Shown: positions 36,003-43,487 of the stretch, in pieces
How positions within the stretch are numbered: position 1 is the first letter of the stretch
Layout: the number at the start of each line of letters is the position of its first letter
Assembly: GCA_034439575.1 (NCBI GenBank)
Contig: JAWXAQ010000012.1
Span: forward strand, 96,001-160,000
Reading direction: 5' to 3'
DNA from: Leptospira sp.
GTDB lineage: Bacteria; Spirochaetota; Leptospiria; Leptospirales; Leptospiraceae
DNA length: 64,000 nucleotides
The notes under the pieces: generated by a model
The model's database searches: none
The model's input: the letters and a program-made list of their open reading frames with translations, nothing else
What the model was told of the DNA's origin: nothing
Made by a program: the position numbers and the translations under genes

Positions 36003-36308
36003 TTAGGAAATATTAAAAATATCCATAAGGTTAGATATGGTAAAAATAGTTTTTACCTCGTTTGACATATTGATGATACGAATCGAACCTTGTTTTTCTT
36101 TGGTCCAACTGTAAGTATGCAGAAGAATACCGATTCCAGAAGAATCGAGAAAATTTAATTTTGCAAAATCTAAAGTCAGACTTTTGACCCCAGAATCACG
36201 TAGGGCGATCAGCTCTTTTTTTAAGTTGCTTGTATCTTTTACGGATAGATTTCCGATAAAATGCAAAGTAGCCGATTCGCCTTCCCTATTAATTTTAAAT
36301 TCAAACAT
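36003..36308 (-). CDS. STAS-domain anti-sigma-factor antagonist
   Basis: LDFAKLNFLDSSGIGIL phosphorylatable-Ser motif; start uncertain (36308 or 36323). Confidence 0.9.
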   Translation of the reverse strand: MFEFKINREGESATLHFIGNLSVKDTSNLKKELIALRDSGVKSLTLDFAKLNFLDSSGIGILLHTYSWTKEKQGSIRIINMSNEVKTIFTISNLMDIFNIS

Positions 36309-36393
36309 AACCAAAGTTACCATTCCTTCATAAACTAAGCGAATCAATCAAAAAACGTTTGATTTTTGGAAAAAGGATTCTAGAAAAAGGATA

Positions 36394-37351: not shown

Positions 37352-38848
37352 ATGGCAAAAAAATCTTATATAATTGGTATTGATGCAGGAACTACTGGGA
37401 TACGTACATTTTGTTTTGATGACAAGGGTAAGGTGATATCCTCCGCATATGAAGAGTTTAAACAATACTATCCAAAACCAGGTTGGGTAGAACATGACGC
37501 GGAAGAAATTTGGACAAAAACACAAAAGCTAATCGGATCTGCCATTCGCAAAGGTAAATTAAATCCGAAAGATGCTGTCGCCATTGGTATAACAAATCAA
37601 CGTGAAACATCTGTTGTGTGGGATCGTAAATCAGGCAAACCGATTTACAAAGCTATCGTTTGGCAGTGTCGCCGAACATCCGATATCTGTAAAAAATTAA
37701 AAGAACAAAGTTTAGAAGGCACCTTCCGCAATAAAACGGGTCTAGTTGTAGACGCCTATTTTTCTGGAACCAAAATCCAGTGGATATTGGACAATGTCAA
37801 AGGTGCGAGAGACAAAGCAGAAAAAGACGAATTGATGTTTGGTACAATTGATACTTGGTTATTGTACAAATTGACAGGTCATAAAGAACATAAAACAGAC
37901 CATACAAATGCATCCAGAACTCTTCTTTTTAATATCCAAACCAAAGAATGGGATGAGGAACTTTGTCAAATTCTACGTGTTCCAAAATCTATGTTACCGG
38001 AAGCATATAACTCTCGTAATCTATTTGGTTTTACTGCGAAAGTGAAATCTTTACCTGATGGGATTCCTATTTCTTCACTTGTAGGTGACCAACAAGGAGC
38101 ACTTTTTGGTCAACTTTGCACAGAACCCGGCGAAGCAAAAAATACTTACGGTACAGGTTGTTTTTTCTTATTCAATGTCGGCGAAGAATTTCGAATCTCT
38201 AACCAAGGTTTGATTACGACTTTGGCGCTTGGCCCAGAAGGAAAGACTGTTTATTGTTTGGAAGGATCTGTCTTTATCGGCGGAGCAGTCGTTCAATTCT
38301 TGCGGGATAACTTAGAATTTTTTAGTGCATCAAAAGATTCTGAAAAATTAGTAAAGGCTATAAAAACAAAGGATGATATTGTATTTGTTCCCGCCTTCGC
38401 AGGCCTTGGCGCCCCCCACTGGGACCAGGAAGCGCGAGGTGCGATCTTTGGACTCTCAAGGGATACAACTTCAGCACAAATTACAAGGGCGGCACTCAAA
38501 GCGATCGCCTTACAATCCTATGAGCTAGCCCATGCGATGGAAAGAGAAACTGGCAAACCTTTGAAATTTTTAAGAGTAGATGGTGGAGCTACCTCCAATG
38601 CTTGGCTTATGCAATTCCAAGCTGACATCCTTGGAACAAAAGTAATTCGTCCCTCAAACGTTGATACGACTGTCCTCGGTGCCGCATATCTTGCAGGCCT
38701 TGAAAGAGGTTTTTATAAAAGTGTGGCGGCCTTAAAAAAATTGGAAACTAAGAATACCGAGTTCACACCTAAAATGAAAGATGCGGATCGCCAAGAAGAA
38801 ATTAAAAAATGGAACTGGGCTATCGAGAGGGTCAAAACAACTTCTTAG
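37352..38848 (+). CDS. glpK: Glycerol kinase
   Basis: DAGTT, GWVEHD, TNQRET, TNASRT, GDQQ, KNTYGTG, PAFAGLGAPHWD, VDGG. Confidence 0.97.
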   Translation: MAKKSYIIGIDAGTTGIRTFCFDDKGKVISSAYEEFKQYYPKPGWVEHDAEEIWTKTQKLIGSAIRKGKLNPKDAVAIGITNQRETSVVWDRKSGKPIYKAIVWQCRRTSDICKKLKEQSLEGTFRNKTGLVVDAYFSGTKIQWILDNVKGARDKAEKDELMFGTIDTWLLYKLTGHKEHKTDHTNASRTLLFNIQTKEWDEELCQILRVPKSMLPEAYNSRNLFGFTAKVKSLPDGIPISSLVGDQQGALFGQLCTEPGEAKNTYGTGCFFLFNVGEEFRISNQGLITTLALGPEGKTVYCLEGSVFIGGAVVQFLRDNLEFFSASKDSEKLVKAIKTKDDIVFVPAFAGLGAPHWDQEARGAIFGLSRDTTSAQITRAALKAIALQSYELAHAMERETGKPLKFLRVDGGATSNAWLMQFQADILGTKVIRPSNVDTTVLGAAYLAGLERGFYKSVAALKKLETKNTEFTPKMKDADRQEEIKKWNWAIERVKTTS

Positions 38849-40122
38849 TATTCAAACCATTGCAATACAAATTCGAAAGCCTTTCGATCTTTGGAAATTC
38901 CACCACCTAGCACAAATCGACCATTTGTGTAAAAGGGTATTTCCAATATTAGGTCGGGAGGCAAACGATGAAAAACAAATGGTTCCCATTCTTTCTTTGA
39001 AATAAACCAATCAAATCTTAATACTTCGATCCATTCCGTTGTTCTAAAATATAATTTATTTTTTCCCACTCCGTAAAATTCAATCCCTTCACCTAATTTC
39101 CAAAAGTTGATCTTTTTTGAATCTTCAAAGGGGATTTTTATTTGTTGGTTCAATTCACTCAATTTTTCTGAATAAGTAGTAACATAGTCATTTTCATAAT
39201 AAATATTTCTAGAAAACTTTTTGTACAATTCTGTTTCAAGAATTTCTAAAAATCCTTCTCCAGGTTCTGGTTTTAACACAGGAGATTTTTTAATCATCTC
39301 CAGTTTGTTTTTTGAGACAGATCTTTCTAAGATCGAACGAACTGGGGGTGAGAGATGGGGAAGTGCAAATTTGATTTTACGTTCATCCATGGAGGAGATA
39401 AAATTTTGCAAAAATGGTCCATGAATGAGCGGAATCAGTTCAGCAGAAAACATACTTTTACTTAAAAAAATAGCAAACTCCTTCTCATAAGAAAAAAGAT
39501 TCGCTATGATTTTATATTCTTCTGAGTGAGTTCCTGAATATAGGATTTTCACAAGGCGGAAAAGATAGGTTTTACTTTTTTTATCAAAGTACAATTCTTC
39601 AATTTTTTGGATCACTTCTTCTTCGGAAAAATTGGGATTCACTATATCTCTTAGTGAAATGTATTTTGCTGATCCATATTTAGTTCGCTTGGTATGCGTT
39701 AGCTGAAAAATTTGATTATCGCGAATCCCTCCGATTTGAATTGTCTCGTGATCATCTAGACTGATTTTAAACGGAAGTTTTGAGGGAGCAGGAAATTCAT
39801 TGGATAGAATTTTTTGAACAGCTTGTCCTTTTTGATCTAAGTAAAATGTTCTATCAGGCAATTTGATTTGAGAGATGATTTTTTTTCCCGTATATTGAAT
39901 GTATGTTGGTGTAAATATGACATTGGAAGGGTATGATATACGATTCCATTCGATGTTATATAAAAATTGAGGAATAACCAAGGGATCACTCGTGATTGAA
40001 GGAAGTGCTTCTGGTTTTTCACGGAGGAAAGGGTAAAAGGGATTGATATCACTTTGGACTCTGGCAACAGAATCCAAATTTGCAAAAAAGAAATGATAGT
40101 TTTTTCCGAGTTTGTGAATCAA
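38845..40122 (-). CDS. Hypothetical protein with a central FliG C-terminal-like domain
   Basis: EEYKIIANLFSYEKEFAIFLSKSMFSAE...MDERKIKFALPHLSPPVRSILERSVSKNKLEMI resembles FliG E..II..L...PELAEEI...MF.FE...D...LA.AL...S......I..NMS.RAA.ML. Confidence 0.6.
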   Translation of the reverse strand: MIHKLGKNYHFFFANLDSVARVQSDINPFYPFLREKPEALPSITSDPLVIPQFLYNIEWNRISYPSNVIFTPTYIQYTGKKIISQIKLPDRTFYLDQKGQAVQKILSNEFPAPSKLPFKISLDDHETIQIGGIRDNQIFQLTHTKRTKYGSAKYISLRDIVNPNFSEEEVIQKIEELYFDKKSKTYLFRLVKILYSGTHSEEYKIIANLFSYEKEFAIFLSKSMFSAELIPLIHGPFLQNFISSMDERKIKFALPHLSPPVRSILERSVSKNKLEMIKKSPVLKPEPGEGFLEILETELYKKFSRNIYYENDYVTTYSEKLSELNQQIKIPFEDSKKINFWKLGEGIEFYGVGKNKLYFRTTEWIEVLRFDWFISKKEWEPFVFHRLPPDLILEIPFYTNGRFVLGGGISKDRKAFEFVLQWFEY

Positions 40123-40361
40123 GGAGTTTGTTTTTTTAATTTTCTCTGTATTTTAATTCTGAATTTTTCCCAGTTATAATCTACTTTCAAATCAATAAAT
40201 TCTTGTTCGATGCCAAATCTCATAAAATCAAATATTTCTGTTTGGTCCATACCTACAACGATAGATAGGTCATTAATCACACGATCAAGCCTTCGTGCAT
40301 CACGATCACTTAGGTGAAAGGTTTCTAATAGTTGGATTTCAAAATCTGTAAGTTTGATCAA
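40119..40361 (-). CDS. Small hypothetical protein
   Basis: 80-aa ORF fills the gap in a minus-strand run; TTGA overlap with the next gene. Confidence 0.7.
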   Translation of the reverse strand: MIKLTDFEIQLLETFHLSDRDARRLDRVINDLSIVVGMDQTEIFDFMRFGIEQEFIDLKVDYNWEKFRIKIQRKLKKQTP

Positions 40362-40374
40362 AACAATTTCTCAC

Positions 40375-41541
40375 CTAGAAAGCTGCGACAAGTATCGTCT
40401 CTATCTCATTTTTCGGAAGTTCACGGGGAAGGCAATCGAGAAATGGATAGGTAGCAGCTAAGGTGGCGATGCCAGGTAAATCAATTTTTTTTACTTCATA
40501 CTCAGAGAGTCTTTGCGGAATTTTTAGTTCGAGATAAATTTTTCGAATCCCTTCCACCGCTTTAATTGCTGCTTCGATGACAGAGATATTTGTCACATCT
40601 TCATCAAGGGCTCGTGCTATCATAACATACTTACCAGCAGAAGATGTTAAATTGTATTCCATCACATGCGGAAGTAAGATCGACATAGCTTGGAAGATAT
40701 CAAGTGTTGTAATGGTTGTAACAGAAAGGGATAGCGCATAACAGAGACCAAGTGAACTTGTGGATTGTGCAATTCCCGCAAGTAAACTTGCCGCATAGAT
40801 GGAGTTTTTGGCACCTAAGTTTCTAGGTTCCCTTATGGCAGTCACAATGTTTTTTGAAATCAATTCGATCGCACGAAGGGCAGTGGAGGAAGTGATTTCA
40901 TTGGCATACTTTGAAAGTATGCTATCAACCGCCGCAGACAAAATGGCAATTCCTGTTTTGGCAGTATCCGTGGAAGACATACCAGCACCAATTTTGGGAT
41001 CAGAAACAATTAATTCAGGAAAAACCCATTCGTGAGCAAAGTATTTTCGATTTTTATCTTTATCATCAATCACAGAAAAAAATGGCGAACACTCATTGCC
41101 GAGAAGTGGTTTTGTGGGAACAGTGATTAAAGGTAATCCCCGTCTTTTTAATTGTTTTTTACCACTGACCAATTCTTCTGCAAATAGATCATTGGTCGCA
41201 AGAAGGGCGGCCGCTTTACCTGCGTTAATCGACTCAAAAGAGCCATAAGCAACAACACAATCGGCATTTGATATGCGAAGAAAATGTGCCGTCGAATCTA
41301 AATCTTTATAATGAACTCGGTCAACGATATCATCATATATGATCACACCTTCTGAATGTTTTTCTAAACTTGTTTTTATTATGGAAAGTTCTTCTGCATT
41401 TTCGAGTTCGCGTTGCGTAGCGATAAGAACAACTCTGGTTCCAATGTTTTTCACAAAGGAACCGAGTTTGTAACCACAATCTATTTCAAAGTGGATTTTA
41501 GGAGGAAATTGGAAGTTGATCCATTCCGGAAGGACTGGCAT
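40375..41541 (-). CDS. Iron-containing alcohol dehydrogenase homologue, degenerate (probable pseudoenzyme)
   Basis: Fe-ADH fold pattern (PLITVPT, LLPHVMEYN, LKIPQRLSE) but the GGGS and D/H/H/H ligands are substituted; SD AGGAG upstream. Confidence 0.8.
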   Translation of the reverse strand: MPVLPEWINFQFPPKIHFEIDCGYKLGSFVKNIGTRVVLIATQRELENAEELSIIKTSLEKHSEGVIIYDDIVDRVHYKDLDSTAHFLRISNADCVVAYGSFESINAGKAAALLATNDLFAEELVSGKKQLKRRGLPLITVPTKPLLGNECSPFFSVIDDKDKNRKYFAHEWVFPELIVSDPKIGAGMSSTDTAKTGIAILSAAVDSILSKYANEITSSTALRAIELISKNIVTAIREPRNLGAKNSIYAASLLAGIAQSTSSLGLCYALSLSVTTITTLDIFQAMSILLPHVMEYNLTSSAGKYVMIARALDEDVTNISVIEAAIKAVEGIRKIYLELKIPQRLSEYEVKKIDLPGIATLAATYPFLDCLPRELPKNEIETILVAAF

Positions 41542-41599
41542 ACAACACTCCTAGAGATAACGACACAAAGGTGACAACATCCAAACAGAGGACAATTCT

Positions 41600-41625
41600 T
41601 TAGGACCCCCCACCTCCGGTCCTAA
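41600..41625 (-). promoter_or_regulatory. Stem-loop immediately after the flgM stop
   Basis: On the minus strand TTAGGACC-GGAGGTGGGG-GGTCCTAA, 8-bp stem, no following U-tract. Confidence 0.5.
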
Positions 41626-41952
41626 TTATTGTTGTCCGAGAAAAGTAGATGCGATTTGATCAGAAATTTTATCTAACATTTCCGTAGAAAGGTTATCGTA
41701 ATCTCCGTTCTTCAAACGCTCTTTAACAGCCTTAATCTTTTCTGTTCTGTCTTCCTCTGGTGGCATAGACACGATTTGTTTTGCGATCTGTTTAACTTCA
41801 GATTGTAGCTTCGCTTCAGATGCGATTTTTTTAGCCGCATCGGAGATAGAAATTGTATCTACAGGACCAGTTGTTTCTGGTTTGGAAGGTGTATTTGTTT
41901 TTTTGGTTTCGTATCCAAAACCACCAACTCTTCCTATTTTATCGACGTTCAT
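41626..41952 (-). CDS. flgM: Anti-sigma-28 factor FlgM
   Basis: DTISISDAAK...RTEKIKAVKERLKNGDY matches the FlgM D.V.IS...R.EKV..IK..I..G.Y pattern; sigma-28-like promoter upstream. Confidence 0.85.
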   Translation of the reverse strand: MNVDKIGRVGGFGYETKKTNTPSKPETTGPVDTISISDAAKKIASEAKLQSEVKQIAKQIVSMPPEEDRTEKIKAVKERLKNGDYDNLSTEMLDKISDQIASTFLGQQ

Positions 41953-41973
41953 AGTATTTGTCCTCTTACTACT

Positions 41974-42696
41974 TCAGGTATCGGAGTTTTTAGAAAATCC
42001 CTTAAGCGTTTTTTTTCTATGGTTGAGAAGAAAAACAAATTCTCCCTTGGCATTGGGCGGATTATTAGCTAAATCTGCCGGATTTGGGTAATATCTCAGT
42101 TCTTCGAAGGACTTAGTCAATTCTCGCCCCACAAGCACTTCGGTATTCGGGTAAAGCTCTAAAAGCAAAGGATAGAGCCTAGGCAATTTATGTACAGATT
42201 CGTAAAAAACAATAAGACCATCTATTTTTGTTGCCTCCTCTAATTCTTTTCGTTTTTTCGAAGGCTTTTCTGAAAGAAATCCTAAAAAAAGTGTAGGATT
42301 TACTTGAAATCCGCAAACTGATAGAATGGCGCTCAAGGCAGATGCCCCTGGAATCGGGACTATGGAAAATCCATTTTCCCTGACCACACGAACTACATGA
42401 GATCCAGGGTCAGATATCCCAGGTGTGCCTGCATCGGATACGAGAGCATATGACTTTCCCTCTTTTAAACCAGTGATCAGAGAATGGTAAGGTGTTTCCG
42501 AGGAATCCTTATATAAAGGCCAAGTTTGTTTCGAAATAGATAATTTTTGCAATAAACTACGCGTTTCACCTGCTGATTCACAAAGTATGGCATCCACAGA
42601 TGCTAAAATTTCTTTGGCACGGTCTGTCGTATCCCCTACATTTCCTATGGGAGTGGCAACAACGTAGAGTTTGCCTGGTTCAGATTTATGGGCCAA
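41974..42696 (-). CDS. rsmI: 16S rRNA C1402 2'-O-methyltransferase
   Basis: LYVVATPIGN, ALVSDAGTPGISDPG, PIPGASA, FYES, RELTKSFEE, KGEF. Confidence 0.95.
   Translation of the reverse strand: MAHKSEPGKLYVVATPIGNVGDTTDRAKEILASVDAILCESAGETRSLLQKLSISKQTWPLYKDSSETPYHSLITGLKEGKSYALVSDAGTPGISDPGSHVVRVVRENGFSIVPIPGASALSAILSVCGFQVNPTLFLGFLSEKPSKKRKELEEATKIDGLIVFYESVHKLPRLYPLLLELYPNTEVLVGRELTKSFEELRYYPNPADLANNPPNAKGEFVFLLNHRKKTLKGFSKNSDT
41978..42004 (-). promoter_or_regulatory. Putative sigma-28 (FliA) promoter of flgM, inside the 3' end of rsmI
   Basis: TAAG-N15-TCCGATAC versus consensus TAAA-N15-GCCGATAA; SD AGAGG follows. Confidence 0.7.
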
Positions 42697-43447
42697 TGAA
42701 TTGGCATCCTATTTGTTTCACACCTGATGGGCAAGGGCAACCAAGTGCTTCTTTCCCTGCTTGGAGGCATGGATTGCATGCGGTTCCCACAGGACAACTG
42801 GCAGGGCTTGCACAATTGGCCACAGAACAGGTCGTAGAATTACAGCCAGTACCGACTTGGCAAAGTGATAATGGGGCAATGCCAACGCCTGCGCCTTCTG
42901 CTTCATATCCGCCCGCACAGACAGACACAGGAGCCGAAGGATTAGATATGAGACCATTGGCAAGAAAGGCCCGCATCGTAAAGTTGTAAACCTGGCATTT
43001 TTGGAACGGATATGTGCCTGGGGGAGGCACTTGGTAACGGATTCGTTTGGTGATGATATTTCGTGAATCTGTAGAATTCTGAAAGGGCAGGTGCGGAAAA
43101 CTAGGCTGAACCCCATCTTCTAGCCATTCGCCACTTACTGTTTGAATGATCGAGGGAGTTGCCGTCGTGACATATAAATTATAACCCAAGAATTGAGATT
43201 CTCTATTGGTTACATAATAACGGATCAAAAATTCAGGTCTTGGACTGATCGTATAATCAGTGACATTTGTTTGGAAATTGTCAGTTATGTTGTTATTTAC
43301 AGCAACCACGGTCAAAATTTGGGGAACCCCCGCTGGCACCAAAAATATAAAAGGTGCAACGGGTGTATCGGTATTCGTTCCACATTGAAAAAGTGAGAGA
43401 AAAGAAAGGCCGATCAGATAGATTGGATGAAGGAGGGTTCGCCGCAT
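42686..43447 (-). CDS. Putative lipoprotein with Cys-rich C-terminal domain
   Basis: Signal ending LFQC; 10 Cys in the last 58 aa; SD GGGAGG upstream. Confidence 0.75.
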   Translation of the reverse strand: MRRTLLHPIYLIGLSFLSLFQCGTNTDTPVAPFIFLVPAGVPQILTVVAVNNNITDNFQTNVTDYTISPRPEFLIRYYVTNRESQFLGYNLYVTTATPSIIQTVSGEWLEDGVQPSFPHLPFQNSTDSRNIITKRIRYQVPPPGTYPFQKCQVYNFTMRAFLANGLISNPSAPVSVCAGGYEAEGAGVGIAPLSLCQVGTGCNSTTCSVANCASPASCPVGTACNPCLQAGKEALGCPCPSGVKQIGCQFIGP

Positions 43448-43487
43448 TGAAAAAAGCTTCCCTCCCAAGATTTTAGGAATTCAATCT

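Follow-up and report, generated by a model that had tools for sequence, protein, structure and literature searches.

What does a gene from the family of iron-containing alcohol dehydrogenases (Fe-ADHs) do directly behind flgM, the gene for an anti-sigma-28 factor, once the metal- and nucleotide-binding residues of its product have been replaced? The question is raised by a stretch of 64,000 nucleotides (nt) from Leptospira sp. (GenBank assembly GCA_034439575.1, contig JAWXAQ010000012.1, positions 96,001 to 160,000 of the forward strand), here called the window, in which an open reading frame (ORF) of 388 amino acids (aa) lies on the minus strand at 40375..41541. Motility plays a central part in the biology of spirochaetes and in infection by Leptospira, a genus in which sigma-28 and FlgM control is essentially unstudied. 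We tentatively propose that the protein, referred to below as the pseudo-ADH, is a non-catalytic member of the late-flagellar unit of flgM that has the Fe-ADH fold and acts in late flagellar control or assembly. A preliminary description of the window had proposed a pseudoenzyme repurposed as a scaffold, ligand sensor or flagellar regulator. The repurposed pseudoenzyme has gained support from sequence, selection and fold; the step to a flagellar regulator draws on context, namely the adjacency to flgM and a sigma-28-type promoter, and scaffold, sensor and regulator are all candidate roles.

The homology to Fe-ADHs extends over the whole protein. Pfam domains PF00465 (95.6 bits) and PF25137 (104.4 bits) both scored above their cut-offs and cover it from end to end, and HMMER matched it to DhaT of K. 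pneumoniae (3bfj) with an E-value of 1.7e-35. Both Fe-ADH domains are complete, and a Shine-Dalgarno sequence, AGGAG at 41548..41552 on the minus strand, was read from the sequence six bases 5′ of the ATG, in agreement with the earlier description of a full-length ORF with a good ribosome-binding site. The protein carries the database name “iron-containing alcohol dehydrogenase” in all sources. It reached none of the NCBIfam equivalog cut-offs; the best match, NF041833 (ErcA), gave 169.8 bits against a cut-off of 550. Longer fused forms of the pseudo-ADH were looked for and none was found, which counts as weak evidence given the search method.

To place the catalytic residues, we counted positions by hand along the HMMER alignment to DhaT. 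The four metal ligands of DhaT, D198, H202, H267 and H281, correspond to A199, A203, Y268 and I282, which means that the Asp/His/His/His set of an active iron-dependent alcohol dehydrogenase is absent. The contacts to nicotinamide adenine dinucleotide or its phosphate, NAD(P), are likewise replaced: GGGSPHD of DhaT (family motif GGGSxxD) reads G100-S-F-E-S-I-N106, NTTAGTASE (a TTAGTGSE-type motif) reads PTKPLLGNE, and the conserved Lys of canonical Fe-ADHs (K165) is R165. The same substitutions recurred in three independent alignments. Among the canonical features, G100, the D181-P motif and LPH(292)V have been kept. The loss of the four ligands and of the nucleotide-binding glycine motif had been claimed in the preliminary description and is borne out both by the DhaT alignment and by canonical paralogues. 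Its replacements of GGGSxxD, DALTHAIE and GLVHAMAH also stand; the counterpart of PHG is D-I-F (281–283) and not IFQ as stated there, and neither register contains a His.

The same alignment runs included the canonical paralogues, 16 Fe-ADHs taken from genomes of spirochaetes. All 16 have G102, D106, K165, P189, D199, H268, H282 and G283, and near-invariance was seen at S103 (0.94) and at H203 and H272 (0.88 each). The G102/D106 loop residues and ligands D199/H268/H282 are missing from all 54 members of a metal-less clade to which the pseudo-ADH belongs, and each member keeps at most one of the four metal ligands. At G102, S103, D106, K165, D199, H203, H268, H272, H282 and G283 the most frequent residue accounts for only 20–54% of the clade (n = 54). 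As these former active-site columns vary across the phylum, the old sites have not been swapped for another fixed set.

This variability bears on whether the protein could still be an enzyme or a ligand-binding sensor in which the old cleft serves another cofactor or chemistry, such as the nickel-pincer nucleotide made by LarB/LarC. Such use sits poorly with the bulky F, Y or R that takes the place of the third glycine of the NAD loop in the aligned metal-less members. It also sits poorly with the clade's cleft columns, where we found no conserved set of Lys, Cys or His, the only such residue being H292 of the LPH motif that is shared with canonical enzymes. On the other hand, the residues that now stand in the old motifs are conserved in their turn within the Leptospiraceae, and a passage in the literature describes superfamily members that do without the metal and are still catalytic (PMC5741723). 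Furthermore, larB-like (AIRC) and larC (Ni_insertion) genes lie directly behind the pseudo-ADH in four loci from four family codes, as assigned by Pfam in one of them (L047) and by clustering in the other three. Weighing these observations, we regard continued use of the cleft as quite unlikely. The nickel-pincer version was rejected for this genome, which is 99.98% complete and gave no match to LarC (PF01969). In the L047 locus we also noted that the reading frames overlap.

A gene that has lost its catalytic residues might be decaying, and an ordinary active Fe-ADH might have been misread by alignment. Beyond the database name nothing speaks for either. The gene was matched in 41/41 related genomes and in 81/81 Leptospiraceae genomes representing 14/14 genera, with an open frame every time. 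Within the genus the non-synonymous difference is 0.045–0.085 and synonymous sites are near saturation; for pairs with unsaturated synonymous rates the ratio of non-synonymous to synonymous substitution (dN/dS) is 0.018–0.046, and thus ≤0.05, compared with ∼0.09–0.13 for the rsmI-like gene upstream of flgM and 0.12–0.24 for a 425-aa ORF further downstream. Between genera the pseudo-ADH is 61–76% identical, FlgM 31–58% and RsmI 44–53%. The dN/dS check suggested in the preliminary description thus gave strong purifying selection and excludes neutral decay. As the substitutions were found in three alignments, and the co-aligned canonical paralogues keep all motifs, both a pseudogene and a misread enzyme are highly improbable. 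A homologue of an enzyme family that has lost the catalytic residues and is held under purifying selection is what is called a pseudoenzyme, and from its sequence the protein very probably has no dehydrogenase activity.

The predicted structure agrees with a protein that is maintained. An AlphaFold2 model built from an alignment of 58 orthologues had a mean predicted local distance difference test score (pLDDT) of 91.7 and a predicted template modelling (TM) score of 0.90, and it superposed on the Fe-ADH structures 8zwd, 3owo and 3bfj with a TM-score of 0.92 and a root-mean-square deviation of ∼2 Å at 21–26% sequence identity. We asked where the clade differs from its relatives by conservation rather than by loss. 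Clade-specific conserved positions lie in the C-terminal helical domain, at L290–T299, E314, E323–R333, P342–S346 and R373. Together with the variable cleft columns, this pattern would speak for a surface that binds proteins more than for a ligand pocket that has been kept. Overall, the protein is predicted to be stably folded, and it has probably lost the family's mode of binding the catalytic metal and NAD(P).

The loss of the metal site appears to be ancient and to mark a single clade. In a maximum-likelihood tree the 16 canonical and 54 metal-less sequences were parted by one branch with a Shimodaira–Hasegawa-like approximate likelihood ratio test (SH-aLRT) value of 100. A profile made from Leptospirales members matched at E ≤ 1e-30 in 263/301 sampled genomes of the phylum, a range that also includes canonical paralogues. 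Among 20 loci taken from the better matches, the ligands were missing in all 19 that were scored, and also in the twentieth (L061); in further families, the weaker matches comprise metal-less forms of greater divergence beside canonical paralogues of the same genomes. In a library of 1.84 billion representatives, all of the best matches down to ∼258 bits were metal-less, and canonical sequences started just below. Species genomes provided a named sample of 80 loci, of which 69 were metal-less and 11 canonical. Spirochaete titles were borne by 68 of the 69 metal-less loci, the remaining one being titled “bacterium”, and the carriers include Leptospira interrogans, L. noguchii, Turneriella, Leptonema, Brevinema, Brachyspira and many metagenome-assembled genomes. 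All 11 loci with non-spirochaete titles were canonical. As far as we searched, the metal-less clade thus seems to be confined to spirochaetes; the clusters of 10 divergent members carried hardly any taxon names. FlhA is present in 300/301 of the sampled phylum genomes, which leaves no non-flagellated contrast for comparing presence of the gene with presence of flagella.

We then turned to the position of the gene. The next ORF upstream is flgM (108 aa, 41626..41952, minus strand), identified by a Pfam FlgM score of 28.6 bits (cut-off 25) together with an alignment of 27 orthologues. The gap is 84 nt on the same strand, and the earlier placement of the gene directly downstream of flgM is correct. 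In front of flgM lies an rsmI-like methyltransferase gene (TP_methylase, Pfam PF00590; 41974..42696, minus strand). The arrangement is widespread: among 55 metal-less loci, 33 (18 family codes) encode FlgM on the same strand at a distance of 5–161 nt upstream, and RsmI precedes FlgM in 32. The named sample, which partly overlaps with this set and includes L. interrogans, had FlgM upstream in 51/69 metal-less loci versus 0/11 canonical loci. In the locus of L. interrogans itself, a clear homologue of flgM precedes the pseudo-ADH by 77 nt.

As regards a promoter, we take TAA[AG]-N14-18-CGATA to be the sigma-28-type consensus. The window has TAAG-N16-CCGATA at 41979..42004 (minus strand), which places it within the 3′ end of rsmI and 52 nt ahead of the start of flgM. 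The pattern was found before flgM in 22/33 loci versus 12/391 other ORFs of the same loci. In 21 of the 22 it lies 41–57 nt from the flgM start, and in the other (L002), where the start of the ORF was called further upstream, the distance is 27 nt. Because the motif lies within the end of rsmI, rsmI would fall outside the unit, and flgM and the pseudo-ADH inside it. Moreover, the gap between flgM and the pseudo-ADH is only 5–22 nt in six Leptospiraceae genera, which leaves no room for a separate promoter. The pseudo-ADH thus stands where a gene of the late flgM unit is expected, on the same strand, directly behind flgM and downstream of a sigma-28-type motif. We suggest that it is made as the second gene of a unit that starts at the flgM promoter.

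In this genus the junction between the two genes appears to contain a terminator-like hairpin. It has an 8-bp stem, UUAGGACC/GGUCCUAA, and lies at 41600..41625 (minus strand), directly after the flgM stop codon. The hairpin sequence is kept in 12/12 loci of the genus, mostly with TTTTT behind it; the copy in the window has AAAGAATT in place of the T run. Its folding energy of −13.3 kcal/mol (z −0.67) is unremarkable. RNA contigs, 97–99% alike, from two metatranscriptome runs of one wastewater study bridge the junction, at 41460–41959 and 41372–41904. Because RNA depth was taken from contigs, it cannot rank the expression of flgM and the pseudo-ADH, and uncovered parts carry no meaning. Our proposal requires that transcription reads through a weak hairpin, with which the bridging contigs are compatible; they are no proof of a single transcript.

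Together, the C-terminal conservation pattern and the position in the flgM unit are the reasons for the flagellar reading, and we hold a flagellar role of the pseudo-ADH to be possible rather than probable. The hairpin and the limited weight of the bridging contigs count against our proposal, and so do several further observations. FlgM is missing upstream in 22/55 metal-less loci, and ten family codes have the gene detached. In the sister family of the order, 12/12 loci lack flgM beside the pseudo-ADH. The sigma-28-type motif was found upstream of only 2/21 detached copies. Two genomes have FlgM and no pseudo-ADH. As a neighbour of flgM, rsmI is as faithful as the pseudo-ADH, and it stays with flgM when the pseudo-ADH leaves, as in the sister-family genomes, which keep the rsmI-flgM pair elsewhere. 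Supplements to biofilm RNA-seq of L. biflexa list I1327 as differentially expressed and do not list I1326 or I1328, either of which may be the tag of the pseudo-ADH orthologue. I1327 (LEPBI_I1327) is the gene that was proposed as flgM from RNA-seq data in a passage of PMC4863578. Finally, divergent members of the superfamily such as maleylacetate reductase are still enzymes, according to a passage in PMC5741723.

Several of these observations suggest a different role for the protein: a non-catalytic housekeeping or structural one unrelated to flagella, with the flgM neighbourhood an inherited gene order kept by operon inertia. We know of no flagellar role for RsmI. Because rsmI is an equally faithful neighbour, an old adjacency by itself need not mean a shared function. 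The moves away from flgM in ten family codes and the 19/21 detached copies without the motif fit an unrelated role, and so does the degree of conservation, which resembles that of glycerol kinase at the same locus (90.5% for the pseudo-ADH versus 88.5%) and is typical of core cell functions. What inertia explains less easily is that 18 family codes of a phylum of great age have retained the adjacency, with gaps as small as 5 nt, and that flagellar and chemotaxis genes recur as neighbours after relocation. In a complete 2.8-Mb genome (L077) the pseudo-ADH is divergent from ORFs that we recognized by eye as fliQ-fliR-like; cheW is nearby in 5 metal-less loci; and in at least 4 genomes flhA is found on the contig of the pseudo-ADH at a distance of 14–16 kb. 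In addition, the gene was found only in FlgM-bearing genomes, with FlgM present in 10/10 tested genomes that have a detached copy. One family with small genomes lacks both (FlgM in 0/3, pseudo-ADH in 0/5). All these counts of presence and absence are small and the genomes related, so that they give only a hint. By our estimates this housekeeping role is the main rival of a flagellar one, and we judge it to be somewhat unlikely.

The neighbours of the gene also raise the possibility that the protein is an adaptor or assembly factor working with rRNA or tRNA methyltransferases, for example in ribosome maturation. Three types of methyltransferase are neighbours in different lineages. RsmI is encoded two genes upstream in the 32/55 loci mentioned above; in the sister family the pseudo-ADH faces a divergent gene for an RsmG-SpoU fusion methyltransferase in 8/9 loci scanned with Pfam; and in L077 a SpoU-family gene starts 1 nt past the pseudo-ADH stop codon. 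However, it is flgM and not the pseudo-ADH that RsmI remains with when the two separate, the sigma-28-type promoter between rsmI and flgM would place rsmI outside the unit, and methyltransferase genes are common enough that two further coincidences are not unlikely. We consider this explanation improbable. The RsmG (GidB)-SpoU-type fusion is ∼500–565 aa long in the eight sister-family loci, and the GidB match in the Leptospira studied here is a 249-aa open frame on another contig.

Other neighbours of the gene were also recorded. In a clade of four family codes the pseudo-ADH has a Mem_trans permease on one side and a GAF-GAF-SpoIIE (PP2C) phosphatase on the other, a context that was run through Pfam in one locus only (L054). 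SpoIIE-type phosphatases are used in partner-switching control of sigma factors. In many Leptospiraceae genera, represented by six of our loci, bactofilin and RecJ-like genes lie behind the pseudo-ADH, with Pfam checks in one locus each (L034 for bactofilin, L030 for the RecJ-like gene). They occupy the place taken in this genus by an 80-aa and a 425-aa ORF.

The 80-aa ORF (40119..40361, minus strand) lies 13 nt behind the pseudo-ADH, had no family match in Pfam or NCBIfam, and is limited to two genera of the family. It is overlapped by 4 nt by the 425-aa ORF (38845..40122, minus strand), which ends the same-strand cluster. The 425-aa ORF is confined to this genus, within which it is 48–62% identical and fast-evolving, and 10/11 orthologues show a weak central FliG_C-like domain (best E-value 6.1e-6) between beta-rich flanks. 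With this domain it may count as a flagellar neighbour of the pseudo-ADH in the window. Its AlphaFold2 model was poor (pLDDT 65). Foldseek gave no match for it at E ≤ 0.001, and the Atlas structure matches all had TM-scores below 0.3 except for one short row. On the other side of flgM, a 260-aa ORF (42686–43468, minus strand) overlaps the start of rsmI and had no family match. Its N-terminus resembles a lipoprotein signal (…LSLFQC), and tblastn found it before rsmI in 9/12 loci representing Leptospiraceae genera. Further downstream, a 114-aa ORF (36003–36347, minus strand) reads by eye like a STAS-type anti-sigma-factor antagonist.

If the pseudo-ADH has a role in late flagellar control or assembly, it would act there without catalysis. 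The most likely mode would be binding of a protein partner, which may be FlgM, FliA or a component of the motor or the export apparatus, and contact could be made through a patch of residues in the C-terminal helical domain, among them E323, E330, R333, R344 and R373, whose conservation is limited to this clade. Complex prediction for the pseudo-ADH with FlgM scored 0.00 in both runs; these were made without controls and say nothing either way. A more specific and rather unlikely version makes this ancient, lineage-specific dead dehydrogenase of spirochaetes an unrecognized part of the FlgM/sigma-28 checkpoint, where it could, for instance, hold, stabilize or release FlgM or FliA as a cytoplasmic partner. 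If true, this would add a new core motility factor to Leptospira, including its pathogens.

Some consequences do not depend on the partner. A clear flgM homologue with a sigma-28-type promoter can now be placed in L. interrogans and across the phylum. The gene behind it, which is annotated everywhere as an iron-containing alcohol dehydrogenase, most probably cannot encode such an enzyme, and recognizing this would correct a systematic misannotation that feeds metabolic models. It would also add a deep and well-conserved case of a dehydrogenase fold kept for non-catalytic use, and it offers a testable candidate flagellar factor in a tractable saprophyte. We found no paper on this protein by topic or by neighbouring locus tag; supplements may still mention the gene. 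Tags of L. interrogans labelled alcohol dehydrogenase in PMC2964297 and PMC5979558 gave no match to this gene that we could make, and they were set aside.

Among known systems, the closest in structure are the group III iron-activated alcohol dehydrogenases, DhaT (3bfj) and ADH2 of Z. mobilis (3owo), together with Mdh of B. methanolicus (8zwd/8zrl) and FucO of E. coli (1rrm). They share with the pseudo-ADH the two-domain full-length fold and the domains PF00465 and PF25137. In contrast to them, the pseudo-ADH has the ligands, GGGSxxD, the TTAGTGSE-type motif and the Lys replaced, falls into a separate clade and carries clade-specific C-terminal residues.

A precedent for a regulatory member of the family is ErcA of P. 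aeruginosa (NF041833, “alcohol dehydrogenase-like regulatory protein”), the best NCBIfam match. In 2013 Hempel et al. reportedly credited this Fe-ADH-family protein with a regulatory rather than a metabolic role. ErcA acts together with a sensor kinase in the oxidation of ethanol and is not encoded beside flgM, and by its score the pseudo-ADH is not an ErcA. The name ErcA also appears in a gene table of PMC12997753. Maleylacetate reductases (PcpE, 3hl0, 3w5s) are divergent superfamily members whose chemistry has shifted away from metal-dependent alcohol oxidation; as described in a passage of PMC5741723, they are still enzymes that depend on NADH, and they have an NADH motif and His/Lys catalytic residues of their own. 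They match the pseudo-ADH far more weakly than the canonical ADHs do (E-values 2e-8 and 2.8e-6).

With regard to flgM, the textbook hierarchy places the gene in sigma-28-dependent class III units. The sigma-28-type motif before flgM in the window is in accordance with flgM operons of other bacteria. To our knowledge, no flgM unit described so far carries a gene for a dehydrogenase fold. According to a passage in a 2025 review, there is no demonstrated FlgM in L. interrogans, and FlgM of Treponema denticola has unusual properties (PMC12655853). The FlgM of T. denticola is TDE0201, as given in part of PMC9481697, and TDE0200 is listed in PMC3914990 as a tetrapyrrole-methylase family gene. TDE0200-TDE0201 is the same rsmI-flgM pair as in the window, and a checkpoint function of the pseudo-ADH, if true, would help to explain the unusual behaviour of T. 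denticola FlgM.

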